This document shows, in pieces, positions 671-64,000 of a stretch of DNA of 64,000 nt (the stretch's first letter is position 1; each line of letters begins with the position of its first letter). The stretch is taken from assembly GCA_002748065.1 (NCBI GenBank), contig PDRJ01000032.1, positions 236 to 64,235 on the forward strand, in the 5' to 3' direction. This stretch comes from Bacteroidota bacterium. Its GTDB lineage: Bacteria; Bacteroidota; Bacteroidia; Bacteroidales; BM520. Under the pieces are notes generated by a model. It ran no database searches, was not told the origin of the DNA, and saw nothing but the letters and a program-made list of their open reading frames with translations. The translations under genes and the position numbers were made by a program.

Positions 671-1349
671 AACAAAAATAACAAAAAAACAGTTGTCAGA
701 CAAATTTTAGATTTAGTACCGCGTTGGTTATTTAATGCTTGTACCAATACCTACAAAAGTGATAAAGGTTGCAGTAAATATAAGACATACGACCAATTTG
801 TAGCCTTAACTTTCGGACAGCTAAAGGAGGCATTAAATTACATACAGTCTGGGACGACACATTGATGATTCCTGATGTTGTTAATATCAGCCAGGCCAAA
901 GTTCACGACTGTTATGGATTAGCACAGTTAATATTTCCCAAAGGCACTGTAATTGTAGAAGATAGAGGATATGTTGATTTTGAGTTAATGCTAAATAGTG
1001 TCTGTCTATAGAGTCAGCGTTTTGAGAAGAGGCTGTCTAGAAAGTTCGAATTCGAGGCTTGCGAAGGCTGAAATAGGTGAGTTTACCAGGGTAAATGACC
1101 ATTTGGAAGAGAAGCGTAACGAAGAAGTCGGACTTTATAGACGGACTCTATTTACTCTTGGAACTGGTAAAACGTACAATTGCTAAAGGGAATATAGCGT
1201 TTTCAAACTTATCAGAGAAAATAAGGTTTTGCCTGTATCACTACCTTACTTTGGGATACGTGTGTAATGAAGTTAAAGAGGGCGTTAGGAGAATAAAACT
1301 CAAAAAACAAAAAGAAATTGCTTTTGAGAAAGACTTATTTTCCGGTTAA
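671..1349 (+). pseudogene. IS4-family transposase remnant (DUF4372-like N-terminus), broken by a stop, deletions and a repeat-element insertion
   Basis: Frame 671..865 reads NKKTVVRQILDLVPRWLFNACTNTYKSDKGCSKYKTYDQFVALTFGQL... then TGA. Frame 868..994 reads IPDVVNISQAKVHDCYGLAQLIFPKGTVIVEDRGYVDFELMLN (DDE-type DRGY block) and is cut at 996 by the 155-bp element. A short tail continues 1151..1349. There is no ATG and the total is far too short for an intact transposase. Confidence 0.6.
996..1150 (+). mobile_element. MITE-like 155-bp TIR element, copy A (inserted in the IS4 remnant)
   Basis: TAGTGTCTGTCTATAGAGTC...GACTTTATAGACGGACTCTA. Near-identical in length and sequence to copies at 28801, 34651 and 24398(rc). 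Flanked by TA on both sides (aaaTA|G...C|TAttt). Confidence 0.85.
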
Positions 1350-2621: not shown

Positions 2622-3308
2622 ATGAAAAGACTAATAATTTTGATTGCTTCAATATTTATTATATCGAATGCATATTCACAAGAAATGAAGTTTGAGAGAC
2701 CAAACTATAAGAAGATTAGAAGAGAAATAAAAAAGAGAAAATCGAACCTTTATTATAAAAAACTATTTGACCGATATATAAATGGGGATACAACATTCAA
2801 CTTAAATGAGAAAAGACATTTATATTACGGGTTTTCATTTCAAGAAGATTATTCTCCATATGGCATTTCAACATATAGTGATAGTTTGACTATATTTTAT
2901 GAGAAGGACACATTAACTGAGTCTGATTTCAATGAAATTATTAAGTTTTCAAAATTATTACTTGATGAAAACCCATTCGACTTAAGAGCATTGGACAATT
3001 TGAATTACGCTTATTATAGACTTGGAAACAAAGAGCTTGAAAATCTTTACAATTATAAATTATTGTTGATTCTTGATGCAATTATGAGTTCAGGTGATGG
3101 AATAAGTGAGAAAAGTGCATTTTATGTAATATATATATCGCATGAATATGATTTGTTAAATGCTCTAGGATTTGGTTTTGGGGGAGAGCAAAGTTTTACA
3201 ACAAACGGTTATGATTATTTAAAGCTACAGGACAATGAATTTGGAATTGAAGGATTCTATTTTGAAATAAGTAGAAGTTTAGAGCAGCTTAATCTCATGT
3301 TTAAATAA
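2622..3308 (+). CDS. Secreted hypothetical protein
   Basis: 228-aa ORF with signal peptide MKRLIILIASIFIISNAYSQ. It is Lys/Asn/Tyr-rich with AT-rich codon usage. No motif I can name with confidence. Confidence 0.6.
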   Translation: MKRLIILIASIFIISNAYSQEMKFERPNYKKIRREIKKRKSNLYYKKLFDRYINGDTTFNLNEKRHLYYGFSFQEDYSPYGISTYSDSLTIFYEKDTLTESDFNEIIKFSKLLLDENPFDLRALDNLNYAYYRLGNKELENLYNYKLLLILDAIMSSGDGISEKSAFYVIYISHEYDLLNALGFGFGGEQSFTTNGYDYLKLQDNEFGIEGFYFEISRSLEQLNLMFK

Positions 3309-5854: not shown

Positions 5855-7648
5855 TTAAATTAGTTGAATTGCCTTAAATTTACATTTAGTCATACATGTT
5901 CCACATTTTATGCAGGCTGATTGGTCAATGCGATGGGGCATTTTGCGTTCTCCGACGATACAGTTTACCGGACAAGCCCTGGCACATGCGGTACATCCCA
6001 CACAATTCTCTTCGATGATATCGTACATTAAGAGTTCAGTACAAGCTCCTGCCGGACATTTTTTATCGGTTACGTGTGCCACGTATTCATCCCAGAAGTT
6101 GTCCAGTGTGGAGAGTACGGGGTTAGGAGAAGTCTGTCCCAGTCCACAGAGGGAGGCATCTTTGATCACGTTGGAGAGGTTGCGAAGATTGTGAAGGGTC
6201 TCCATATCTCCTTCTCCTTTGGTGATCTTTTCAAGAAGTTCATAAAGACGCTTGTTTCCAATACGGCAGGGGGAACATTTCCCGCAAGACTCTTCCACCG
6301 TAAAGTCAAGATAGAATTTTGCCACAGAGACCATACAGTCATCTTCATCCATGACGATCATTCCTCCGGATCCCATCATGGATCCTTCTGCAATCAGGTT
6401 GTCAAAATCGATGGGCGTATCGAGGTGTTTCTCGGTAAGACATCCTCCGGAGGGACCTCCGGTTTGAACGGCTTTAAATTTCTTTCCATCTTTGATACCG
6501 CCGCCGATTTCAAAGATCACCTCCCGTAAGGTGGTTCCCATGGGAACTTCAATAAGCCCTACGTTATTGATCTTTCCGGCCAATGCAAAGACTTTGGTTC
6601 CTTTGGATCTTTCCGTTCCAATGCTGCTAAACCATTCTGCTCCTTTAAGAAGGATGACCGGAACGTTGGCAAAGGTCTCCACATTGTTCACGTTGGTGGG
6701 CTTTCCTTTGTATCCAGACTCGGCAGGGAAGGGGGGCTTAAAGGTTGGTTCTCCCCGTTCTCCCTCCATGGAGTGGATGAGTGAGGTCTCTTCTCCACAT
6801 ACAAAGGCTCCCGCTCCATAACGAAGCTCCACGTCAAAGTTAAAACCTGAACCCAGAATATCGTTTCCTAATAAGCCGTATTCACGCGCTTGCTTAATGG
6901 CAATCTTAAGACGGTTGATGGCCAAGGGGTATTCTGCACGGATATAGATGAGTCCTTTGTCGGCACCGATGGAGTATCCACAGAGTGCCATCGCTTCCAG
7001 GATGGTGTGTGGATCCCCTTCAAGGATAGAGCGATCCATAAAGGCCCCGGGGTCTCCTTCGTCTGCATTACAGACTACATATTTCTGGTCAGCCTTGTTT
7101 TTTGAGGCAAATTCCCATTTCAAGCCAGTGGGGAAACCTCCACCACCACGTCCTCGCAGCCCTGACTTCTTAAGCTCATCAATGACCTCTTGTGGCGTCA
7201 TTGATGAAAGCGCTTTCCCTAACGCCATATAGGCATCCCGAGAGATAGCTTCATCAAGATTCTCCGGATCAATAAAACCACAGTTTCGCAGCGCAATTCG
7301 GATTTGCTTCTTATAGAAGCCCATCTTTTTGGAGTCTGTGATATGCTCTTTGCTCCCCGGATCTTCGTATAGTAACCGTTCTACTTTTCTCCCCTTTACG
7401 ATGTGTTCGTCAATGATTATCTCGGCATCTTTGGGGGTAACCTGTGTATAAAAGGTGTTGTCAGGAAGAACTTTTACGATGGGCCCTCTTTCACAGAAGC
7501 CAAAGCAACCCGTCGTTACGACCTTTACATCCTCTTCCAACCCTTTTTCCTGAATGCGATCGTTGAGGTTCTTTACGATGCCAACACTGTCAGATGCTTT
7601 ACATCCCGTACCTCCACAGACCATTAAGTGATATTTGTAGGTAGCCAT
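5855..7648 (-). CDS. hydB: [FeFe]-hydrogenase NuoF-like NAD(P)H/FMN subunit (HydB/HndC type)
   Basis: 597 aa. GRGGGGFPTGLKWE (FMN/NADH site), ESCGKCSPCRIG (N3 cluster) and a C-terminal 2x4Fe-4S (CVGCTACARACP, CIKCGTCMTKC). Confidence 0.95.
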   Translation of the reverse strand: MATYKYHLMVCGGTGCKASDSVGIVKNLNDRIQEKGLEEDVKVVTTGCFGFCERGPIVKVLPDNTFYTQVTPKDAEIIIDEHIVKGRKVERLLYEDPGSKEHITDSKKMGFYKKQIRIALRNCGFIDPENLDEAISRDAYMALGKALSSMTPQEVIDELKKSGLRGRGGGGFPTGLKWEFASKNKADQKYVVCNADEGDPGAFMDRSILEGDPHTILEAMALCGYSIGADKGLIYIRAEYPLAINRLKIAIKQAREYGLLGNDILGSGFNFDVELRYGAGAFVCGEETSLIHSMEGERGEPTFKPPFPAESGYKGKPTNVNNVETFANVPVILLKGAEWFSSIGTERSKGTKVFALAGKINNVGLIEVPMGTTLREVIFEIGGGIKDGKKFKAVQTGGPSGGCLTEKHLDTPIDFDNLIAEGSMMGSGGMIVMDEDDCMVSVAKFYLDFTVEESCGKCSPCRIGNKRLYELLEKITKGEGDMETLHNLRNLSNVIKDASLCGLGQTSPNPVLSTLDNFWDEYVAHVTDKKCPAGACTELLMYDIIEENCVGCTACARACPVNCIVGERKMPHRIDQSACIKCGTCMTKCKFKAIQLI

Positions 7649-8221: not shown

Positions 8222-8306
8222 ATTAAGTAGTTGTAAATGAGTTGTATGTGTGAGTATCGGCGGGCTGAAATAGCCCTTTTGAGATTGTCTAAAAAGACCA
8301 GGCTCG

Positions 8307-8344
8307 TGTCTGTTCCTAAAGTCGGACTTTAACGACGGACGCTA
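8307..8344. repeat. Mini hairpin derivative of the MITE (two termini back to back)
   Basis: GTGTCTGTTCCTAAAGTC-GGACTTTAACGACGGACGCTA. Degenerate internal MITE sequence (ggctgaaatag...) lies just upstream at ~8262..8306. The terminal CTA at 8342..8344 is the TAG stop of CDS 8342..8887. Confidence 0.7.
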
Positions 8345-13533: not shown

Positions 13534-13550
13534 TTGTATATCGGTTATTT

Positions 13551-13590
13551 AGTATCTGTCCATAAAGTCGGACTTTATAGACAGACGCTA
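13551..13590. repeat. Mini hairpin derivative of the MITE in the pyrB-pyrI spacer
   Basis: AGTATCTGTCCATAAAGTC-GGACTTTATAGACAGACGCTA (about 14-bp stem). The terminal CTA at 13588..13590 is the pyrB TAG stop. TA on both flanks. Confidence 0.8.
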
Positions 13591-14526
13591 TTTAAGGTTA
13601 AGTGTTGATGCAAGGAGCGCTTCGCGAACATAGACGCCATTGAGCGCTTGTTGGAAGTAGTAGGCTTTGGGGTTGGTATCCACATCCTCGCTGATTTCGT
13701 TGACCCGGGGAAGGGGGTGCATCACTTTGAGGTTCTCCTTCGAGTTGGCCAGCATGGCATTCTTTAGAATGTAGCTGTTTTTAACCCGTTCGTACTCCAG
13801 TGGATCGGCAAAGCGTTCCCGTTGGATTCGTGTCATGTAGATAATGTCCACCTCAGGGATGATTTCATTGAGCTCCAGATGTTGGGTGTAGGTTAGGTTG
13901 GCATCCTTGATGTGTTGTTTGACGGCCCTGGGAAGTTTTAATTCTACCGGTGATACCAGTCTGTAAGTACAGTTAAATTGCGTCATGGCCTGTACCAGGG
14001 AGTGTACCGTACGTCCATACTTCAGATCCCCCACAAAGGCAATCTTCAAGTTCTCCAGGGTGCCCTGTGTTTTGAGGATGGAGTAGAGGTCTAACATGCA
14101 CTGTGTGGGGTGCTGGTTGGCGCCATCCCCGGCGTTAATGATGGGCACCTGGCTTATCTCGGAGGCAAAGCGGGCACTGCCATCCAAGGGGTGGCGCATC
14201 ACAATGAGGTCGGCGTAGAGGCTGATGTTCATGATGGTATCCCGAAGTGATTCGCCCTTTTGTACCGAGGAGCTGGAGGAATCAGTGAATCCAATGATTC
14301 GTCCTCCAAGGCGTTGGATTGCCGTTTCAAAACTGAGGCGTGTTCGGGTGGAGGGCTCAAAGAAGAGGCTTGCAATGATCTTGTTTTGTAGCAGCGTGGG
14401 TTCCGGATGACTTTCAAAATGAGCAGCTAACTTAAGGATGCGAAGGATATCCTCTTTGGAGTAATCGGTGATAGAGATGAGGCTTTTATTTTTCATGGGC
14501 ATTTTTTTTCTGAGATCCATATTCAT
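13588..14526 (-). CDS. pyrB: Aspartate carbamoyltransferase catalytic subunit
   Basis: 312 aa. FFEPSTRTR, HPTQ and HPLPR motifs. The start is uncertain (alternative Met residues at codons 3, 9 and 11). Confidence 0.9.
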   Translation of the reverse strand: MNMDLRKKMPMKNKSLISITDYSKEDILRILKLAAHFESHPEPTLLQNKIIASLFFEPSTRTRLSFETAIQRLGGRIIGFTDSSSSSVQKGESLRDTIMNISLYADLIVMRHPLDGSARFASEISQVPIINAGDGANQHPTQCMLDLYSILKTQGTLENLKIAFVGDLKYGRTVHSLVQAMTQFNCTYRLVSPVELKLPRAVKQHIKDANLTYTQHLELNEIIPEVDIIYMTRIQRERFADPLEYERVKNSYILKNAMLANSKENLKVMHPLPRVNEISEDVDTNPKAYYFQQALNGVYVREALLASTLNLK

Positions 14527-17989: not shown

Positions 17990-18089
17990 AATTTGTTGGG
18001 GTAAATGTAATGCGTTGAGCAAAGCCGAAATAACCCTTTGGAAGAGAGGCACCACAAAGAAGTCGGGCTTTATAGACGGACTCTCTCTA
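17990..18089 (+). repeat. Degenerate MITE remnant(s)
   Basis: ggggtaaatg... gcaaagccgaaata..cctttggaagagaggcaccacaaagaagtcgggctttatagacggactctc. Matches internal and right-end MITE sequence, with rearrangement or deletion. Confidence 0.5.
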
Positions 18090-21689: not shown

Positions 21690-22658
21690 CTATTTCAGGC
21701 GACGTTTTTTTATCATTCCTCCCTTGGCATCCTTTATACTATGCATGACGATGAAGGCTTCTTTGTCAATTTTGTCGATTTCTGTTTGTAGTTTTGACAC
21801 TTCCAGACGTGTTAACAGTGTGTAGACGATGTCGGTCTCCTTTAAGGCCTCTCCTCTCTTGCCAAACCCTTTTTTTCCGGCGTATATCGTACAACCTCTT
21901 CCTAGTTTCTCAATGATTGCCAAGCGGATCTCTTCATGTTTTTCCGATAGGATGGAGACCCCTACATACTCTTCAACCCCGGTGATCACGTAATCGACGG
22001 TTTTGGAGGCTGCCAGGTAGGTGAGAACGGCGTATAGGGCAATCTCTACGGAGAAGATATAGGCGGCAATGGAGAAGATGATGATATTGAAGATTAAGAT
22101 GATATCACCAATGGTCATGGCAGTTTTTCGGCTGATAAAAACAGCCAGAACTTCCGTGCCGTCAATGACAGCGCCACCCCGCACAGACAAGCCAATTCCC
22201 AGACCGAGAAAAAATCCACCGAAAACAGAGATTAAGAGCCGGTCTGCAGTGATGGTGGGGTAGGGAATGGTGTAGAGTGCTAGCGCCAGAAGAACGATGG
22301 CAAAAATGCTTTTGATGGCAAATTGCTTGCTGATGGTGGAGAAGGCCAAAAGCAGAAAGGGAATGTTCAATAACACCACAAGAATGGATAGGGGAAGTTG
22401 GGTTACTTTTGTGATGATAAGGGATATCCCCATGACACCCCCGTCAAGAAATGCGTTTGGAAGGAGAAAACCCTTTAATCCGAAACTTGCTGATAGTATC
22501 CCCAGTACAATAAGAAAGCTGTCATGCAAGATATGGGAGACCTCCACTTGCATGTAGCGAACCTCTTTTTCAAATTGCCTTCCGGAGGTTCGTTTACTTT
22601 TGGTTCTCAGGCGGCGTTTTGCCGTTTTGACAATGAAGTATTTGAAGAGAGAATTCAT
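21690..22658 (-). CDS. YitT-family (DUF2179) membrane protein
   Basis: Several hydrophobic segments plus a C-terminal DUF2179-like soluble domain. Alternative start ATG 22553 (MQVEVSHIL...). Confidence 0.75.
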   Translation of the reverse strand: MNSLFKYFIVKTAKRRLRTKSKRTSGRQFEKEVRYMQVEVSHILHDSFLIVLGILSASFGLKGFLLPNAFLDGGVMGISLIITKVTQLPLSILVVLLNIPFLLLAFSTISKQFAIKSIFAIVLLALALYTIPYPTITADRLLISVFGGFFLGLGIGLSVRGGAVIDGTEVLAVFISRKTAMTIGDIILIFNIIIFSIAAYIFSVEIALYAVLTYLAASKTVDYVITGVEEYVGVSILSEKHEEIRLAIIEKLGRGCTIYAGKKGFGKRGEALKETDIVYTLLTRLEVSKLQTEIDKIDKEAFIVMHSIKDAKGGMIKKRRLK

Positions 22659-23311
22659 GGTGTTGTACGTTCAATTTACTCTTCAATGGTACAACAATTA
22701 TCCGTTCGTTGTTATGAAATTGTAAAATAAATTTTTTCTTTTTTTTGCTTATTTAAGATGTTTGTTATGAGTGCTTTATATTTTATGAGAGAGAGGAAAG
22801 GGCGCCGGAGGTAGCTCTGTTATCATCTTTCTTAAGGGTGGGCGAGGAGTGTGGGAGAAGAGAAGGTATTTTAATCCATAACTTGTCAGCTAAGTGCTTT
22901 ATGCCTATTTTTGCTTCAGTTGAAGAGTTTCCCCCTTTTACCCTGTTTTTGGTCGAACGCAAAAATACAAGGTCCTGAGGGCTTTTTACAACTACGACTT
23001 TCGGGTGTGGGTGGAACATTTCGTAAAGAGAAAATTGAACGACGGAATACGTTCAGACGGAAGACTACTCTTAGGAAGAAAATAAATTTTTTGAGTGCAA
23101 AATACCTTTTGATGGGGAATGAGATCGTTCAAGGAATCAGGGGATAGATCTTTTCCGGGCAGGAAATGATCTCTGGTGATTGGCGAGAAGGCCTTGCTGT
23201 TTTTATCAGTTAAAAGGTATACCGTGGAGGGAAATTCACCTCTAATGTCGATCTGGAATTTGATAAAGGCGGGGCATCTTCTATCGTATGGAATTCATAA
23301 AAGAAACAGAT

Positions 23312-24382
23312 ATGAAAAATATCATCCTCCTTTTTTTGGGCTTGCTGTCTCTTTCCATGGTTTGGGGGCAATCTTTTGTAGGGAGGGATACTCTGAAAAC
23401 GGAGATTCTCCCGAACAGTGGACGTAGAATTGTTGTTGAAAATGAGCAAGAGCTAGCAGCAGCATTGGCAATTCCCGGAGCCTCGGTGGAGATAAAATCC
23501 AACACCAATATCCTCCTTACCTCAACCATTGAGGTGGCAAAAGGGGTTCACTTAAATGGTAACAACAACACGGTAGCTGCTGTGGGAACCGATTTTGTGA
23601 TGTTTTTATGGCAACCGGGGGTAAATCACTGTCTGTTTGAGAACCTTTATCTTGTGGGGCAGTCGTCAAGTGCTGTGAATAAGGCTTTTGTGAAATCCAA
23701 TGTGGGGATACAGTTAGATCGGGCCTACCAGAATGTGTTTCAGAACCTTCACTTTTCCAATTTTTCTGGGGCCTGCATGACCTTTCAGGGGGCTCTTTCC
23801 GATGATCCCTATTCGCATCGAGCCATGGTGTTGGGCTGCTCTTTTTCCAATAGTTTTGTGGGGATCTCTCATACCGATAGGTACGAATACTCGATGGTTT
23901 CAACCTGCTTTTTCTCCCGTTGCCGGGTGGGTCTTCTTGGTAATTCGGGCAATTGGAATGTGACGGGAAATACCTTCGTTACCTGTGCAACCCCCTTCTT
24001 GTCCATTGCTGAAACAACGCCCTACGGAACCTTGAGTACCGACAACTGGGGGCACGGTATTTTTTCTGCTAACAAGGTAGAACATAGTGCCAGTGGCGGG
24101 GGAATAAGATGGTTTCAAAACCTTGGTTTTCCTGTGGGGGATGGTCTCTTTACCGAAACCGGTGGTGTTCATATTGAGGGTGTTATCCCGCCTACCATGG
24201 CCTCAAACTCTTTCTATTTTTCAAACCTGAAATTTAATGATCCCAACACGGTTGGACATATTCATTATGTCAATGCCAGTACTTTTCAACACAGTACGAT
24301 CTCTTGTAACATCCCTGACCGAATCAAGATCAATGCCTGCAACCTTAGGGAAGAGGTGGTTTTGGAGGATGTGTCACCGTAG
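23312..24382 (+). CDS. Secreted right-handed beta-helix (pectate-lyase-fold-like) protein
   Basis: Start moved to MKNIILLFLGLLSLSMVWGQ (signal peptide). Repetitive N/G/V-rich beta-helix-like segments. Function unknown. Confidence 0.6.
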   Translation: MKNIILLFLGLLSLSMVWGQSFVGRDTLKTEILPNSGRRIVVENEQELAAALAIPGASVEIKSNTNILLTSTIEVAKGVHLNGNNNTVAAVGTDFVMFLWQPGVNHCLFENLYLVGQSSSAVNKAFVKSNVGIQLDRAYQNVFQNLHFSNFSGACMTFQGALSDDPYSHRAMVLGCSFSNSFVGISHTDRYEYSMVSTCFFSRCRVGLLGNSGNWNVTGNTFVTCATPFLSIAETTPYGTLSTDNWGHGIFSANKVEHSASGGGIRWFQNLGFPVGDGLFTETGGVHIEGVIPPTMASNSFYFSNLKFNDPNTVGHIHYVNASTFQHSTISCNIPDRIKINACNLREEVVLEDVSP

Positions 24383-24397
24383 CGGCAAAACACGATT

Positions 24398-24552
24398 CAG
24401 AGCCCGTCTATAAAGTCCGACTTCTTCGTTATGCTTGTCTTCCTAATGGTCATTTACCTTAGTAAACTCCCCTCTTTCAGTCTTCGCAAGCCTCGAACTC
24501 GAACTTTCTATACAGCCTCTTCTCAACCCCTTGATTTTATGGACAGACACTA
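24398..24552 (-). mobile_element. MITE-like 155-bp element, copy E (reverse orientation)
   Basis: cagagcccgtctataaagtccgacttcttcg...ttttatggacagacacTA. Full length, between convergent genes. Confidence 0.85.
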
Positions 24553-24566
24553 TTTATCTCTTCTTC

Positions 24567-28256: not shown

Positions 28257-28526
28257 TTAGTTTTTGGTATTGCCCGTTTGATCTTTTCCGACAGCCTGTT
28301 TGATATCCTTCTCCAGGTTATTGATCTCTTCAGCAATCTGGTCGGTCTCTGCGGTTAACTCTTGGGTGAAATCCTGTGTGGCTTTTTTCATTTTTTGTAG
28401 GATTGAACCGGTCTTTTTCCCGATTTCACGAATCCCGGAGGGGCCAAACAGTAGAAAGATGACCGCCACGATGACCAACAACTCACTTCCGCTGAGGTTA
28501 AAGAACAAATAGACGCTCGGTATCAT
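28257..28526 (-). CDS. tatA: Twin-arginine translocase TatA/E-family protein
   Basis: 89 aa. SELLVIVAVIFLLFGPSGIREIGKKTG...KKA hinge/amphipathic pattern. Confidence 0.75.
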   Translation of the reverse strand: MIPSVYLFFNLSGSELLVIVAVIFLLFGPSGIREIGKKTGSILQKMKKATQDFTQELTAETDQIAEEINNLEKDIKQAVGKDQTGNTKN

Positions 28527-28545
28527 TCAATTCTCTATAAAGATA

Positions 28546-28553
28546 CAAAAATA
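28546..28553 (-). promoter_or_regulatory. -7 box TATTTTTG (minus strand) upstream of tatA
   Basis: The plus strand reads caaaaata, 20 nt upstream of start 28526. Confidence 0.45.
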
Positions 28554-28683
28554 AAAATTAAACGTTAACTTGACGACATCCCCTCCTTGCTTTTGAAAAT
28601 TCTTTCTTTCTGAAAAGAGGGTAGATTCCTTGATGAATGGACGACTTCAAGAGGAGGAAAGGGGAAAGGGAGGGCATGCCGTT

Positions 28684-28798
28684 TGTATAGAATGTTCGAA
28701 TCGAGGCTTGCGAAGGCTGAGAAATGGGAGTTTACTGAGGTAAATGACCATTTTGAAGACAAGCGTAACGAAGAAGTCGGACTCTATAGCGGACGTTA
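28684..28798 (+). mobile_element. MITE-like element, copy F (5'-truncated), in tandem with copy G
   Basis: Starts mid-element (tgtatagaatgttcgaatcgaggcttgcgaagg...) and ends ...gaagtcggactctatagcggacgtta, 2 nt before copy G. Confidence 0.8.
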
Positions 28799-28800
28799 CA

Positions 28801-28955
28801 TAGTGTCTGTCCATAAAGTCAGCGTTTTGAGAAGAGGCTGTATAGAAAGTTCGAATTCGAGGCTTGCGAAGGCTGAGAAATGGGAGTTTACTGAGGTAAA
28901 TGACCATTTTGAAGACAAGCGTAACGAAGAAGTCGGACTTTATATACAGCCTCTA
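28801..28955 (+). mobile_element. MITE-like 155-bp element, copy G
   Basis: TAGTGTCTGTCCATAAAGTC...GACTTTATATACAGCCTCTA, TA-flanked. Confidence 0.85.
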
Positions 28956-28961
28956 TTTATC

Positions 28962-28994
28962 GCAAAAGAGGCTGTCTGATCCAGACAGCCTCTC
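28962..28994 (-). terminator. Terminator hairpin downstream of secDF
   Basis: AGAGGCTGTCTG-atc-CAGACAGCCTCT. On the minus strand it is followed by TTTTG. Its arms resemble the MITE termini. Confidence 0.6.
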
Positions 28995-29025
28995 TATGAA
29001 TTGGTATAAGCGATTAATAAAACTA

Positions 29026-32000
29026 CTATTGATTGTTAAGTTTTATCTTCTCTTTCTTTTTCCGTGCAAGTCCCTCCTGTGCTGCACCCTTATTTTTGGT
29101 GAGGTCATAGGCTACAGGAGTAGAGATAAATACGGAAGAGTACGTACCCACGAGGATACCGACCATCAGGGCAAAGGTCATTCCACGGATCACCTCACCA
29201 CCCAGGATGAAGATACTGAGAAGTACAATGAAGGTGGTCCCTGAAGTGAGGAAAGTACGTCCTAAGGTGCTATTTACCGCACCATTAATATTGTCTTTAA
29301 AGCTATGCTTGGGATGTAATCCCACATACTCACGGATTCGGTCAAAGATAATCACCGTATCGTTAATGGAGTAACCGATGATGGTCAGGATAGCCGCGAT
29401 AAAGGACTGGTCGATCTCCAGGTTAAATGGCAGCACACCATAGAACAATGAGTAAATAGAAACCGTAATCATGGCATCGTGAGCCAGGGTAACCAAACCA
29501 CCCACACCAAACTGCCATCTTCTAAATCGGGCCGCGATGTAGGCAAAGATGACGATTAGAGAGATAAGGATGGCCCATACTGCACGCTGCTTGATGTCAT
29601 CGGCAATGGTAGGTCCAACCATCTGGCTGGATAAAATACCTGCTAGCTTCTCTTCGCTATCTCCGGCAAAGTCCTTGTAGGAGAGAGGTTCTTTGTAGAA
29701 ATTCTTCAATCCATTGTAAAGCTTGGATTCCACAATGGAATCTACGTCAACGCCCATCTCTTCAATCATATAGTTGGTGGTCACCTTTACCTGACGAGAG
29801 GGGCCAAAGGTCTTCACCTCGGGGGCACTACCAAACTCTTTAGCCAGAGAGGAGCGAATATCTTCGGTGGAGATGTCTTTGTCGAAGCGTACCACATAAG
29901 TTCGTCCACCGGCAAAGTCAACCCCTTGGTTCAATCCGCGGGTAGCCAGAGAGATAATACCAACGGCAATAACTGCTGCAGAGATGATGTAGAAGGTTTT
30001 CCGTTTTGCGATGAAGTCTACATTGATATTGGTAAACCAGTTAGCGGTTACCTTGTTGGAGAACTGCAATGTACGGTTCTTGCTCAGCCTTCTGGAGAAG
30101 ATCAAACGAGAGATAAAGATCGCCGAGAAGAGCGAGGAGAGGATACCAATGATGAGCGTAGTAGCAAAACCTTGTACCGGACCGGAACCGAAGACGTAAA
30201 GTACGATGGCGGTCAAAAGGGTTGTGATGTTACCATCAATGATGGCTGAATAGGCGTTTTTGTAACCATCTTCCACAGCAAGGCGAATCCCTTTTCCTAC
30301 GCGAATCTCCTCTTTGATACGTTCGTAGATGATTACGTTGGCATCTACTGCCATACCAATGGTCAGAACGATACCCGCAATACCGGGCAGGGTAAGTACC
30401 GCTCCCAAAGAGGAGAGTACTCCAAAGATAAAGAAAACGTTGGTGAGCAATGCAAGGTCAGCCACATAACCACCCCGATTGTAATAGAGTACCATGTAAA
30501 CCATCACCAAAATAAAGGCAATGATAAAAGAATTGATTCCCGAACGAACCGCTTCGCGTCCCAGGGAGGGACCCACGATCTCTTCCTGAACGATACGGGC
30601 TGGAGCAGGAAGTTTACCTGCTTTCAAAATATTTGCAATGTCTTGTGCCTCTTCCACACTCATGTCACCACCGGAGATAGAGGAACGTCCACCGGCAATC
30701 TCTCCGCGTACATTGGGGAAGGAGTAAACATAGTCATCAAGGACAATGGCAATCTGACGACCCACATTCTCACCGGTAAGGCGTTTCCAAACACGAGCTC
30801 CTTCAGAGTTCATGGCCATGGAGACCTCTACACGTCCGTTTTGGTCATAGTCTTGACGTGCGTCTACGATCACGTCTCCGCCAAGGGGGGCTTTCCCGTC
30901 ACGAGAGGTGACTTTCAGTGCCACAAGCTGTAACCGATCTGGCGCATAGGATTCCGGTTTGTTGGCCCAAACCAGGATCATGTCACGGGGCATCAATTGT
31001 TTAACTTTGCGAAGCATATAGTTTACCTTCGCTGTATCTTTGATGAAGGCAGAACCTACCGAAGCACTCTCTCCCGGAACCACCTGCCCGTTGGCATTTT
31101 GGTAGAAAGAGGGTTGAAGATAACGGAAAAGAGGGTTGTTCTCTTCCCAGTCTTCACGTTGCTTGTCAAGGTCTTCTGAATCAATATCACTGTCTTCAAT
31201 CAACTCTTCAAGGGACTGTTCTTCTCCGCTGGAGGTCTCCGTTGTATTTTTCTTATCGCTGCCTTTGGCCTCTTGTGAAGTTTTGGGTTTTTCCGTAGCC
31301 GTTGTTGCTTCCTCTTTTTCGGCATCTACTGCTCCTTCGCTACCATAGGCTGCCTCCTCTTTCTCAATTTGACGCAGACGGGCGTTTGCATCAGTGAAAT
31401 AGGTGTGTATCTCGTTAAACTTGAATGTTTCCCAAAATTCCAGTTTTGCAGAACCCTGGAGAAGCTTACGTACACGCTCAGGCTCTTTGATACCGGGGAG
31501 CTCGATAAGGATACGGCCCGTTTGTTGTAATTTCTGAATGTTAGGCTGGGCAACACCAAAACGGTCAATACGAGTACGAAGAATCTCGAAAGAGCGGTCG
31601 ATGGCTCCTTTGGTCTCCTTGCGGATAATCTCTAAAACTTCATCGTTGGTGGAAGTGGTAGTGATTCCCCTGTTTTTAAACTCGTAAGCGTATATGGCCG
31701 CCAACTTGGCATTGGGGTCAGTTTCGTAGAAGGCATTGGCAAAGAGGGTAATGAAGTCCTCCTGAGAGTCCTTCATCTTCTCGGATGCTTTGCGGATGGC
31801 TTCGTTAAAGGTGGGATCTTTACTGTATCCGGAAAGTGCACGGACAATGTCCGCAACGGAAACTTCCATGGTAACGTTCATTCCTCCTTTAAGGTCCAGA
31901 CCAAGGTTAATCTCACGCTCTTTACAATCCTGGTAAGTGTATTTCTTTCCAATGTTGTAAACCGTTTCATTCTTCATCGAATCAAGATAGTAACGTCTGC

Positions 32001-34577: not shown

Positions 34578-34650
34578 GCTTCGAAAGAGGAATGAATTTT
34601 CCTATTTTTGCCGTAGAATAGAAGATAGACGTTTAACCATTTTGCCTATA

Positions 34651-34805
34651 TAGTGTCTGTCCATAGAGTCAGCGTTTTGAGCAGCGGCTGTATAGAAAGT
34701 TCGAATTTGAGGCTTGCGAAGGCTGAAATAGGTGAGTTTACTGGGGTAAATGACCATTGGGAAGAGAAGCGTAACGAAGAAGTCGGACTTTATAGACAGA
34801 CTCTA
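34651..34805 (+). mobile_element. MITE-like 155-bp element, copy H
   Basis: TAGTGTCTGTCCATAGAGTC...GACTTTATAGACAGACTCTA, with flanks tataTA|...|TAtata. It ends 16 nt before ATG 34822. Confidence 0.85.
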
Positions 34806-34821
34806 TATAAAGTAGATTGTT

Positions 34822-39622: not shown

Positions 39623-39986
39623 AGCATTATTTATAACTGACCTGTCTTAACAACAGGGAAGAGGCTTTCGTTTCCCCTTTTTGGGGCTATTTTTAGCTCC
39701 TTATTTTTTTTGAGAAAAATGTTGTTTTGTTGTATGTAAATATATAGTAACTAGATGTTTATCTGTTCTTTTGTTGGGGCTTTGTTCTCTTATGGAGAGC
39801 ATCAATAATAAAAATAAGTTAATTTTTTATCTCGTCTGTTTTTATGATTGTTGATCCTTCTCTATCACATGTTTTTTTCGGGAGAGAGAAGGTCGCGGGA
39901 AGGAGGTGCCTTGCATGAGATGTCGTTGAAATTTTCCCCCAAGAGGATTCATAAGAGGCTCGTGCCGGAACAAAGGAATGATTTGC

Positions 39987-39994
39987 TACCTTTG
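39987..39994 (+). promoter_or_regulatory. -7 box TACCTTTG
   Basis: Only 5 nt upstream of ATG 39999, so the mRNA would be leaderless or nearly so. It lies inside the longer track ORF. Confidence 0.35.
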
Positions 39995-39998
39995 CCCA

Positions 39999-40820
39999 AT
40001 GAAGGATAAGGTTGTGATTATTACCGGAGCCTCTTCCGGTATAGGACGGGCGTTGGCAGTGCAATTTGTGAAGCAGGGGTCAATGGTGGTTCTTGCGGCA
40101 CGCAGTAAGGAGAAATTGTTGGAGGTGGAAGCCTCCTTGCAGGGTTATCCGGGGAAGGTATTGGTGGTTCCTACAGATGTGAGTGTAGAAAAAGAGTGCC
40201 AGAGACTTGTGGAGAAAACGGTAGCGGTGTTTGGTCGCATTGATATTCTTATTAATAATGCCGGTATATCCATGCGTGCCCTCTTTTGTGATCTGAAGCT
40301 GGAGGTGCTGGAGCGTTTGATGGCTGTCAATTTCTGGGGTACCGTTTACTGTTCCAAGTATGCTGAGCCTTACTTGGTGAAACAGAGGGGATCGTTGGTG
40401 GGGGTGATTTCCATTGCCGGATACCAAGGCCTTCCTGCACGGACCGGTTATTCCGCTTCCAAGTACGCCATTCGTGGTTTCCTGGATACCGTGCGGATAG
40501 AGAATCTGAAAACGGGAATGCATGTGATGATTGCTGCACCGGGGTTTACACAATCCAATATCCGTTTTTCTGCACTTACCGCTGATGCTACGCCTCAGGG
40601 AGCAACACCGCGTAAGGAAAAAAGCATGATGTCGCCGGAATATTGTGCGTATCGGATCTATTGGGCGATTCGTCGCCGAAAGCGCTCGTTGATCCTCACA
40701 ACACAAGGGAAGCTGACCGTTCTTCTGAATAAGCTCTTTCCCCGGTTCGTAGATTATGCCTCTTATCGGCTGATGGAGAAGGAACCCAACTCCCCATTAC
40801 AACGTTATCGGCATAAGTAG
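39999..40820 (+). CDS. Classical SDR-family oxidoreductase
   Basis: Trimmed to MKDKVVIITGASSGIGRALA. NNAG and YSASK motifs. The TAG stop at 40818..40820 is the first three nt of MITE copy I. Confidence 0.85.
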   Translation: MKDKVVIITGASSGIGRALAVQFVKQGSMVVLAARSKEKLLEVEASLQGYPGKVLVVPTDVSVEKECQRLVEKTVAVFGRIDILINNAGISMRALFCDLKLEVLERLMAVNFWGTVYCSKYAEPYLVKQRGSLVGVISIAGYQGLPARTGYSASKYAIRGFLDTVRIENLKTGMHVMIAAPGFTQSNIRFSALTADATPQGATPRKEKSMMSPEYCAYRIYWAIRRRKRSLILTTQGKLTVLLNKLFPRFVDYASYRLMEKEPNSPLQRYRHK

Positions 40821-40950
40821 CCTCTGTCTACCCATTCCGACTTCTTTGTGATGCGTGTCTTCCAAATGGTTATTTACCCCAGTAAATGCTCCTATTTCGA
40901 ACTTTCTAGACAGCCTCTTCTCAAAACGCTGACTTTATGAACAAACACTA
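40818..40950 (-). mobile_element. MITE-like element, copy I (reverse orientation, internal ~22-nt deletion)
   Basis: TAGCCTCTGTCTACCCATTCCGACTTC...gactttatgaacaaacacTA. Lacks the gaggcttgcgaaggctg segment. Confidence 0.8.
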
Positions 40951-40967
40951 AGTAATGTTAGTGCCTT

Positions 40968-63779: not shown

Positions 63780-63958
63780 ATGGCTAATACCTACACGCAA
63801 CTATACCTGCAAATCGTATTTGTAGTAAAAAGCAGAGAAAACCTCATTCATGAGCGTATCCGTGAAAAAGTAGAGAAGTACATCTGTGGTATTGTGAGCA
63901 AGCATAAATCTAAGCCCCTTGTCATCTACTGCAATCCGGATCACTTACATCTCTTAAC
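63780..63958 (+). pseudogene. IS200/IS605-type Y1 (HUH) transposase / RAYT-like gene, interrupted after the HUH motif by a MITE
   Basis: MANTYTQLYLQIVFVVKSRENLIHERIREKVEKYICGIVSKHKSKPLVIYCNPDHLHLL (HUH = HLH). From 63959 the reading frame continues into MITE sequence (TRGCIESPTSSLCL). Confidence 0.65.
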
Positions 63959-64000
63959 TAGAGGCTGTATAGAAAGTCCGACTTCTTCGTTATGCTTGTC
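63959..64000 (-). mobile_element. MITE-like element, copy J (reverse orientation, cut by window end)
   Basis: TAGAGGCTGTATAGAAAGTCCGACTTCTTCGTTATGCTTGTC matches the reverse complement of the right end of copies G and E. Confidence 0.8.

Follow-up and report, generated by a model that had tools for sequence, protein, structure and literature searches.

The repeated unit of about 151 bp in this DNA raises three questions: what kind of element it is, what moves it, and why it folds. The window (the whole stretch analysed, 64 kb) has 10 loci in total: six are full copies or large parts of one, a seventh runs off the window edge, an eighth is a right-end remnant, and the last two are ~37-bp derivatives that consist of the two ends only. 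These repeats are very probably a family of non-autonomous MITEs with a conserved hairpin core, mobilised in trans by an ISNCY-family transposase.

The terminal 18-mer, with up to three mismatches, occurs 10 times in the window against 0.08 expected, and 0 of 100 shuffles reached 10. The units can be aligned end to end over their full length (alignment A1), and the full window copies show pairwise identities of 87–93%. An nhmmer profile built from four full window copies matched at 996–1149, 24399–24552 (−), 28683–28789, 28801–28954, 34651–34804, 40823–40950 (−), 18028–18084 and 63960–64000 (−). Two ~37-nt end-to-end derivatives, at 13552–13588 and 8306–8340, were missed by the profile and came from the terminal-motif search. 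All window copies are intergenic, lying between ORFs. This one family accounts for ~1.8% of a 64-kb housekeeping region, or about one locus per 6 kb, a density comparable to that of the densest bacterial MITEs.

The original prediction, made from the letters of the window, had described a ~155-bp family of TIR repeats, which the 18-mer counts, the end-to-end alignment and nhmmer confirm. Its focal unit at 34651–34805 is real, with ends that need correction: 2 nt of target duplication had been included on each side, and the element proper spans 34653–34803. The two ~40-nt end-to-end hairpin derivatives that it listed are present as the ~37-nt elements above, and its remnant at about 17990–18089 corresponds to the right-end remnant matched by nhmmer. 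A further remnant proposed at about 8262–8306 gave no nhmmer match; this stretch looks like an ordinary GGGCTGAAATAGCCC-TTTT hairpin and is excluded from the count.

Table 1. Copies of the repeat in the window, with the parts of the focal copy (TSD, target-site duplication).
Feature	Position	Strand	Remarks
Focal full copy, 151 bp	34653..34803	+	outer-left TIR 34653-34670
Focal copy, inner-left repeat	about 34681-34705	+	
Focal copy, core helix P1	34712-34715 with 34767-34770	+	
Focal copy, core helix P2	about 34725-34733 with 34753-34758	+	
Focal copy, core helix P3	34737-34741 with 34746-34750	+	
Focal copy, right subterminal region and TIR	34771-34803	+	
Focal copy, left TSD TATATA	34647..34652	.	
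Focal copy, right TSD TATATA	34804..34809	.	
Full copy	998..1148	+	flanks TAAATA (992-997) and TATTTA (1149-1154), reverse complements and not identical
Full copy	24400..24550	-	between convergent PurM-like gene and inserted gene; flanks TAAATA (24551-24556, - strand reading) and degenerate TGAATC (24394-24399)
5'-truncated copy	28684..28796	+	begins at inner-left repeat; left side without TSD; in tandem with copy 28803..28953, TACATA (28797-28802) common to both
Full copy	28803..28953	+	directly after conserved SecDF terminator hairpin; flanks TACATA and TATTTA (28954-28959)
Internally deleted copy	40820..40948	-	TSD TACTTA on both sides (- strand reading; TAAGTA on +), at 40949-40954 and 40814-40819
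Edge-cut copy, right end	63961..64000	-	flank TAGTTA (- strand reading) at 63955-63960
Right-end remnant	18028..18084	+	between convergent ArgS and malic-enzyme genes
37-bp mini-element, two TIRs only	13552..13588	+	TSD TATTTA at 13546-13551 and 13589-13594
Degenerate mini-element, two TIRs	8306..8340	+	no recognisable TSD

Alignment of the flanks gives the pattern TA-NN-TA / G(W)GTCYGTCYATAAAGT ... ACTTTATRGACRGAC(W)C / TA-NN-TA, and 60+ copies, taken from several genomes and metagenomes, have this conserved TIR of 18–20 nt. For 99 TIR pairs of any size, drawn from all fetched DNA, the two flanking 6-mers were identical in 52 cases, compared with 15.4 when left and right flanks were paired at random. 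The central NN was identical in 63 of the 99, compared with 21.9 by random pairing. The target logo is Y-TAWWTA-R, and the commonest duplications are TAATTA, TAAATA and TATTTA. The target duplication is a 6-bp TANNTA, and the TA that the original prediction had taken for the whole duplication is the inner third of this 6-mer. By sequence alone, a 6-bp TANNTA duplication is formally equivalent to a 2-bp duplication inside TA-NN-TA with the TA counted as part of the element; we adopt the 6-bp description, and a plain TA duplication is excluded under both.

A TA duplication had been the basis for reading these repeats as MITEs of the IS630/Tc1-mariner type. TA does adjoin every end and the flanks are AT-rich, as such elements would have it, but the NN beyond the TA agrees between the two sides far more often than random pairing allows and is followed by a second TA. 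Under a TA duplication, every site would have had to contain a TANN-TA-NNTA tandem before insertion.

Sites without the element bear on the same point. The contigs used for comparison (L051–L054) carry the next relatives of the PurM-like protein, at ~80% identity, and do not represent a sister strain; they are collinear with the window at 13–36 kb, and none has a copy of the element. Five orthologous sites are element-free in the syntenic relative. At the OTCase–PyrI junction, the relative reads CTTAACCTTAAATGATC (in longer form, CTTAACCTTAAATGATCATTTACAATG), where the window reads CTTAACCT[TAAATA]-37 bp-[TAAATA] (in longer form, CTTAACCT[TAAATA]GCGTCTGTCTATAAAGTCCGACTTTATGGACAGATAC[TAAATA]ACCGATATACAAATG). 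A near-single TAAATG/A in the relative is thus set against TSD, element and TSD in the window, and an empty site with a single TAAAT(G/A) also speaks against the IS630/mariner reading. The other four sites are the SecDF–TatA spacer, the region downstream of PurM, and the malic enzyme/ArgS and FG-GAP protein/M14 peptidase intergenic regions. All four have short element-free spacers in the relative, shorter by roughly the size of the insert. The terminator hairpin in the SecDF spacer is conserved in all three genomes, and the insertion in the window lies directly after it.

This SecDF intrinsic terminator (GAGGCTGTC-loop-GACAGCCTC-TTTT) is found at 28960–29000 (−) in the window, at 3140–3190 in L051 and at 7050–7090 in L052; both relatives keep it without the MITE. 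The terminator stem is similar to the TIR variant AGAGGCTGT seen in copies 28803–28953 and 63961–64000 and in the inner-left repeat. The likeness could be a coincidence, or a hint to the origin of the AGAGGCTGT end variant.

The defined target accounts for where many copies lie. TANNTA contains TAA or TAG on both strands, so copies often sit on stop codons, and because TANNTA sites often overlap stop codons, many copies abut the 3' ends of genes. Of the copies that face the 3' end of an ORF, 20 of 59 are ≤3 nt from that end. In the window, the TAG stop (40818–40820) of an SDR gene (39978–40820) spans the junction of TSD and element at copy 40820..40948. Copies on stop codons and beside terminators affect the calling of gene ends and possibly the 3' ends of transcripts.

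Head-to-tail pile-ups, with a single 6-mer shared between neighbours, were seen at L103 400–2519, L039 6577–6885 and window 28684–28953, with elements in the order MITE-TAATTA-IS-TAATTA-MITE-TAAATA-IS. The TANNTA flank of a copy already in place seems to be a preferred site of insertion. Flanks that are reverse complements of each other (TAAATA/TATTTA) occur at 992–997 and 1149–1154 in the window and at 8–13 and 1463–1468 in L150. They could have arisen by chance among AT-rich 6-mers, or be the trace of an inversion by recombination between copies.

TIR-only elements of 37–39 bp are present in several genomes (window 13552–13588; L111 47–84 and 127–165; L157 1292–1330). The 6-bp TSD of the window example is perfect, and the orthologous site in the relative is empty. 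Such elements may transpose as such, or may be products of internal deletion.

The original prediction called for a search for a transposase gene bounded by the same termini, and such genes were found at metagenomic loci (L100, L073, L103, L150 and L175–L180). IS copies with the same ~20-nt ends and the same TSD range from 1.45 to 1.68 kb, most being 1.66–1.68 kb. L100, a metagenome contig of 2,068 bp, contains a 1,667-bp IS with the ends GTGTCTGTCCATAAAGTC ... GACTTTATGGACAGACAC and TACTTA on both sides, which interrupts a response-regulator gene. Its 450-aa ORF matched the NCBIfam model NF033593 ('ISNCY family transposase') with 344.2 bits against a cut-off of 325, and gave weaker matches to the IS5 (NF033578, E=1.6e-29), IS1182 and IS982 models and to Pfam PF01609 (DDE_Tnp_1, E=1.4e-8). 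The IS630 model was absent among the matches of the L100 transposase. As judged from its sequence, the predicted transposase of the partner IS is an ISNCY-family DDE enzyme, distantly IS5/IS1182-like.

Further IS copies agree with L100. L073 and L103 (1.66 kb) and L150 (1.45 kb; 1449 bp) encode transposases that are 58–64% identical, and have the same ends and TANNTA flanks. A 1,680-bp variant at L175–L180 is bounded by TAATTA on both sides at different sites, two of them within one assembly. The transposase of L114 is 39% identical, and its contig includes only one matching end. Homologues of the transposase are numerous in metagenomes, often on IS-sized contigs, and those named ISNCY family transposase by NCBI come from Bacteroidales, Bacteroidota and Ignavibacteriales MAGs. 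Within ISNCY, ISfinder lists an ISDol1 group of elements of 1.6–1.9 kb with 6–7-bp direct repeats. With its length of mostly 1.66–1.68 kb and its 6-bp direct repeat, the partner IS would presumably fit that group.

Support for the transposase comes from these metagenomic IS loci, and none of that family lies within the 64-kb window, as had been predicted. A tblastn search of the window with the partner-IS transposase found no homologue in the 64 kb, and none of ten window ORFs, mostly otherwise unnamed, was a transposase by Pfam. NCBIfam and Pfam searches of window ORFs, again mostly otherwise unnamed, returned only housekeeping or unrelated proteins.

The MITE and the IS share only their ends, over ~20–22 nt. 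Past the TIR, neither the 5' nor the 3' non-coding end of the IS can be aligned with the MITE core. No parent IS containing the MITE core was recovered; split nhmmer matches lay only 160–360 bp apart and represent nested insertions. Short elements with the same ends and unrelated cores also occur, at 37–39, 54, 94–100 and ~165 bp, several with the same TSDs. Beside one MITE-like element with the same ends, at L014 3620–3760, there are about five direct repeats of AAAGTTAGGGACAGACG, a sequence that resembles the TIR core GGACAGAC. We considered this iteron-like array as the end of a complex transposon and rejected it, there being no transposase gene adjacent.

The transposase speaks against the IS630/Tc1-mariner affiliation, since elements with the same ends encode an ISNCY/IS5-like enzyme, and with the flank statistics and the empty site it makes that model very improbable. 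The mention of 'some IS5 subgroups' in the original prediction was closer, given the weak IS5 matches. The mechanism is thereby corrected from TA duplication by an IS630-type enzyme to TANNTA duplication with an ISNCY/IS5-like transposase. An ISNCY-family DDE transposase would act in trans on the outer-left and right TIRs of ~18–20 bp, G(W)GTCYGTCYATAAAGT, and the element would insert into AT-rich Y-TANNTA-R sites with duplication of 6 bp. For the poorly characterised ISNCY group, the tie between this family and an IS with a defined TANNTA target provides a testable end sequence and target.

The same evidence bears on another class of bacterial repeat, the REP/BIME-like palindromic units moved by a RAYT (Y1/HUH) transposase. 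Those too are intergenic, form hairpins and reach high copy numbers. REPs are described as GC-rich palindromes of 20–40 bp, without TSD and associated with RAYT; the units here are far longer at ~150 bp, possess 18–20-bp TIRs and 6-bp duplications, and have their ends in common with IS copies that encode a DDE transposase. We consider an origin of this kind to be next to impossible.

The MITE-like, non-autonomous character originally proposed is supported by the TIRs, the TSDs, the dispersed copies and the sites that are empty in relatives. The unit is 151 bp long and has no transposase gene and no conserved ORF, the stems covarying and indels shifting the frames, and there is an IS with matching ends in metagenomes. 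The peptides that recur among the predicted ORFs of the copies had been dismissed as artefacts, rightly so: they differ from one subfamily to the next through indels and compensatory changes in the stems. A small-peptide reading of the GGAG...ATG motif was likewise rejected, because the codons that follow lie in covarying stems and the reading frame is not the same in every subfamily.

At the left end, the terminal repeat occurs twice in direct orientation. The inner of these copies had been noted as a second subterminal copy of the end motif in the left arm; it is real and matters for the structure. In single-sequence folds, the right end (TIR plus subterminal region) pairs with the inner-left repeat and not with the outer-left TIR. 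This pairing and the three core helices together form one hairpin of ~124 nt. Covariation ties the W of the right end to the inner-left repeat (UA:43, AU:12); against the outer-left TIR, that position is a constant mismatch in the window and Draconibacterium copies. The fold z-scores are −4.8 to −6.5 for the top strand and −2.8 for the bottom strand, and the top-strand fold is the more stable of the two by 17 kcal/mol.

In a second alignment (A2), of 68 genomic and metagenomic copies, the stems vary in compensatory fashion between subfamilies and the loops stay constant. The stem variants include GTCAGAAAA/TTTTCTGAC, GATGGAAAA/TTTTCCATC, GTTTTGAAAA/TTTTCAAAAC, GTCCGAAAAT/ATTTTCGGAC, GCCGCCAAAA/TTTTGGCGGC and GCTT/AAGC vs GCTC/GAGC. 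Between these variable stems, the loops and bulges GCGAAG, GGAG and AUGA are conserved. In the three core helices, 87.8% of cells are paired. By counts that are uncorrected for, and inflated by, shared descent within subfamilies, these helices have 132 cells with double-sided changes (45.8 ± 5.3 in shuffled alignments, 0/500 reaching the observed value; ≤47 with a slid partner), and a 45-pair structure on the same alignment has 237 (85 ± 9 shuffled, 0/500; ≤104 in slid controls). Paired cells make up 85.5% of the 45-pair structure against ≤45.6% when slid, and 27 of its pairs show double-sided changes. In P2, 8 of 9 pairs covary, one column pair reading AU:17, UA:16, CG:14 and GC:12. G·U cells outnumber A·C cells by 314 to 103, a 3:1 excess on one strand in which a few fixed G·U pairs give many cells and kinship is uncorrected.

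Covariation in the repeat core had been named in advance as an outcome that would speak for a structured RNA gene family instead of a mobile repeat. The covariation is there, and it does not displace mobility; both hold at once. A family of structured non-coding RNA genes, in which the 'TIRs' are merely a closing stem and no transposon is involved, would account for the strong compensatory variation of the core, the one-strand G·U excess and the very stable fold. It leaves out the outer-left repeat, which lies outside the fold and yet forms the boundary beside the duplicated 6-mer, as well as the TSDs and the empty sites. Moreover, IS copies that encode a transposase and MITEs whose cores are unrelated have these same ends, and orientation relative to genes is random. 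No promoter-like signal was seen in 28500–29100, and no Rfam family was found: Rfam 15 gave no match at the gathering threshold in the whole window, and at E≤10 the tandem copies gave only chance-level matches. An RNA gene family of this kind is very improbable, and we retain the MITE with a conserved hairpin.

In some Draconibacterium copies the P3 hairpin is replaced by a GC-rich hairpin module, (A)GCCTG(Y)CCCGA-N4-6-TCGGG. It occurs at three different positions inside the MITE copies of the Draconibacterium MAG (L012 6541–6728, L008 554–734, L005 3106–3291, L025 4272–4450, L033 4202–4385 and L002 121–302), and looks like a nested second mini-repeat.

Several roles for the hairpin were considered. 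A terminator or promoter was rejected: a simple scan of 28500–29100, which contains the tandem copies, found neither a sigma-70-type promoter nor an intrinsic terminator, and copies lie in either direction with respect to neighbouring ORFs without preference (28 sense and 31 antisense at 3' ends; 26 sense and 19 antisense at 5' ends). A hammerhead-like CUGA...GAAG motif was set aside since, by eye, CUGA varies from one subfamily to another.

Subfamilies descend from master copies only, so whatever all of them have retained is most simply an aid to spread or tolerance. The fold persists across diverged subfamilies, and we infer, weakly, that it probably bears on how the element itself spreads or is tolerated. 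Two routes can be envisaged. In transcripts that read through the element, the top strand could fold into an RNA hairpin and serve to stabilise or process them, as is proposed for Correia, ERIC and bcr1 elements (PMC3184786; PMC10969869). Alternatively, a foldback of single-strand or cruciform DNA could bring the element ends together.

The stronger claim, that the ~124-nt hairpin is a functional structured RNA or DNA carried by a derivative of a DDE transposon, strikes us as rather unlikely. As RNA, the top strand would act on neighbouring transcripts or on the transposase; as DNA, a single-strand fold would be required for mobilisation. The G·U excess suggests the top-strand RNA. Were the claim true, the family would be a new class of Bacteroidota structured RNA or DNA that spreads by transposition, and a hint that the partner ISNCY group prefers foldback substrates.

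The hairpin could also be without function, a by-product of the inverted duplication of the end and of template-switch correction of quasi-palindromes during replication. The right end recurs in inverted orientation as the inner-left repeat, unrelated MITEs with the same ends are likewise palindromic, orientation is random and the one region scanned has no regulatory signals, all of which suit a passive origin. Block duplication, however, does not predict stems that vary while the loops and bulges GCGAAG, GGAG and AUGA are conserved, and the 3:1 ratio of G·U to A·C and the strand asymmetry of 17 kcal/mol are unexpected from a strand-symmetric correction of DNA. A functionless hairpin is conceivable on this evidence, if doubtful. 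Folding is frequent among bacterial MITEs, and the covarying hairpin supplies a concrete hypothesis for it; it is the single feature here that merits experiment.

Among known systems, the ISNCY IS (NF033593) has the same ~20-nt TIRs and 6-bp TANNTA duplication as the MITE and is the presumed source of transposase. It encodes a 450-aa DDE transposase and is mostly 1.66–1.68 kb long, whereas the MITE is non-coding, with a core that cannot be aligned with the non-coding ends of the IS. IS630/Tc1-mariner MITEs resemble the family in being small TIR elements in AT-rich sites with TA beside each end, and differ by their TA-only TSD, as opposed to the 6-bp TSD and ISNCY/IS5-like associated transposase here. 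MITEs of the IS5-family/PIF/Harbinger type (e.g. Tourist) share G-rich termini, an AT-rich palindromic target and, through the weak IS5-model matches, some likeness of transposase. Duplications in that type are 3–4 bp (TWA, YTAR), in contrast to the 6 bp found here, where the best transposase model is ISNCY and not IS5.

In kind, the family may be compared to bcr1 or Correia elements. The bcr1 repeats of the Bacillus cereus group are ~155 bp long, with short direct repeats, a non-conserved genomic distribution and compensatory changes (Delihas 2011, PMC3184786). They are the nearest functional analogue in size, in short direct repeats and in compensatory changes that keep a folded structure. 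bcr1 differs in its 5-bp direct repeats, its cruciform of two stem-loops, its Firmicutes host and its demonstrated transcription; the present family has a 6-bp TANNTA, one long hairpin and a Bacteroidota host. Correia elements (NEMIS) of Neisseria are MITEs of ~100–155 bp with TIRs, whose transcripts fold into long hairpins (PMC3184786, PMC2229807). Like them, the family consists of small TIR MITEs at very high density, often beside genes. Correia elements have a TA duplication, an IHF site and promoter elements. The TSD here is 6 bp, unlike theirs, and an IHF site or promoter elements were not seen. A literature search of limited coverage, which is weak evidence, returned no account of this family, of ISDol1 ends or of ISNCY-linked MITEs in Bacteroidota.

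To place the family among its hosts, we note that the window encodes PorE (T9SS), SecDF, ArgS, a PurM-like protein, SmpB and other housekeeping proteins, and its host belongs to the Bacteroidota. The exact 21-mer of the right end occurs in 49 contigs from ~10 MAG species, Bacteroidales/Prolixibacteraceae-like, including Draconibacterium sp. D96SM.bin.24, an uncultured Bacteroidales bin, Maribellus and HGW-Bacteroidetes-1, and a degenerate TIR pattern matched at least 120 metagenome contigs. An element copy gave no blastn match among 72,556 plasmids, and the right end had 0 exact matches in viral contigs. The same PurM-like locus is present on a 4.3-kb contig (L050) of the Logan assembly SRR6011893, both ends of which are element copies. 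Many of the exact 21-mer matches in MAG contigs are likewise at or close to contig ends, and on both counts copies of the element break short-read assemblies.

Other features of the window were recorded in passing. A tRNA scan returned no tRNA genes. Between the PurM-like and release-factor genes, which adjoin in the relatives L051 and L052, the window has two additional genes (21690–24382), one encoding a YitT-family membrane protein and the other a protein of 364 aa whose only Pfam match, of the Adeno_E1B_55K type, is weak. An exact look-up of the protein from 23288–24382 gave no record. The MITE copy at 24400–24550 lies at one edge of this inserted segment. An unrelated second intergenic repeat of 78 nt is found at 581–658 and 22930–23007 (reverse complement), the two being 76% identical and reading CCGAAAGT..AAAAAGCCCTCAG..TTTTTG.GTTCGAC; one of them is inside the segment inserted relative to the syntenic relative.
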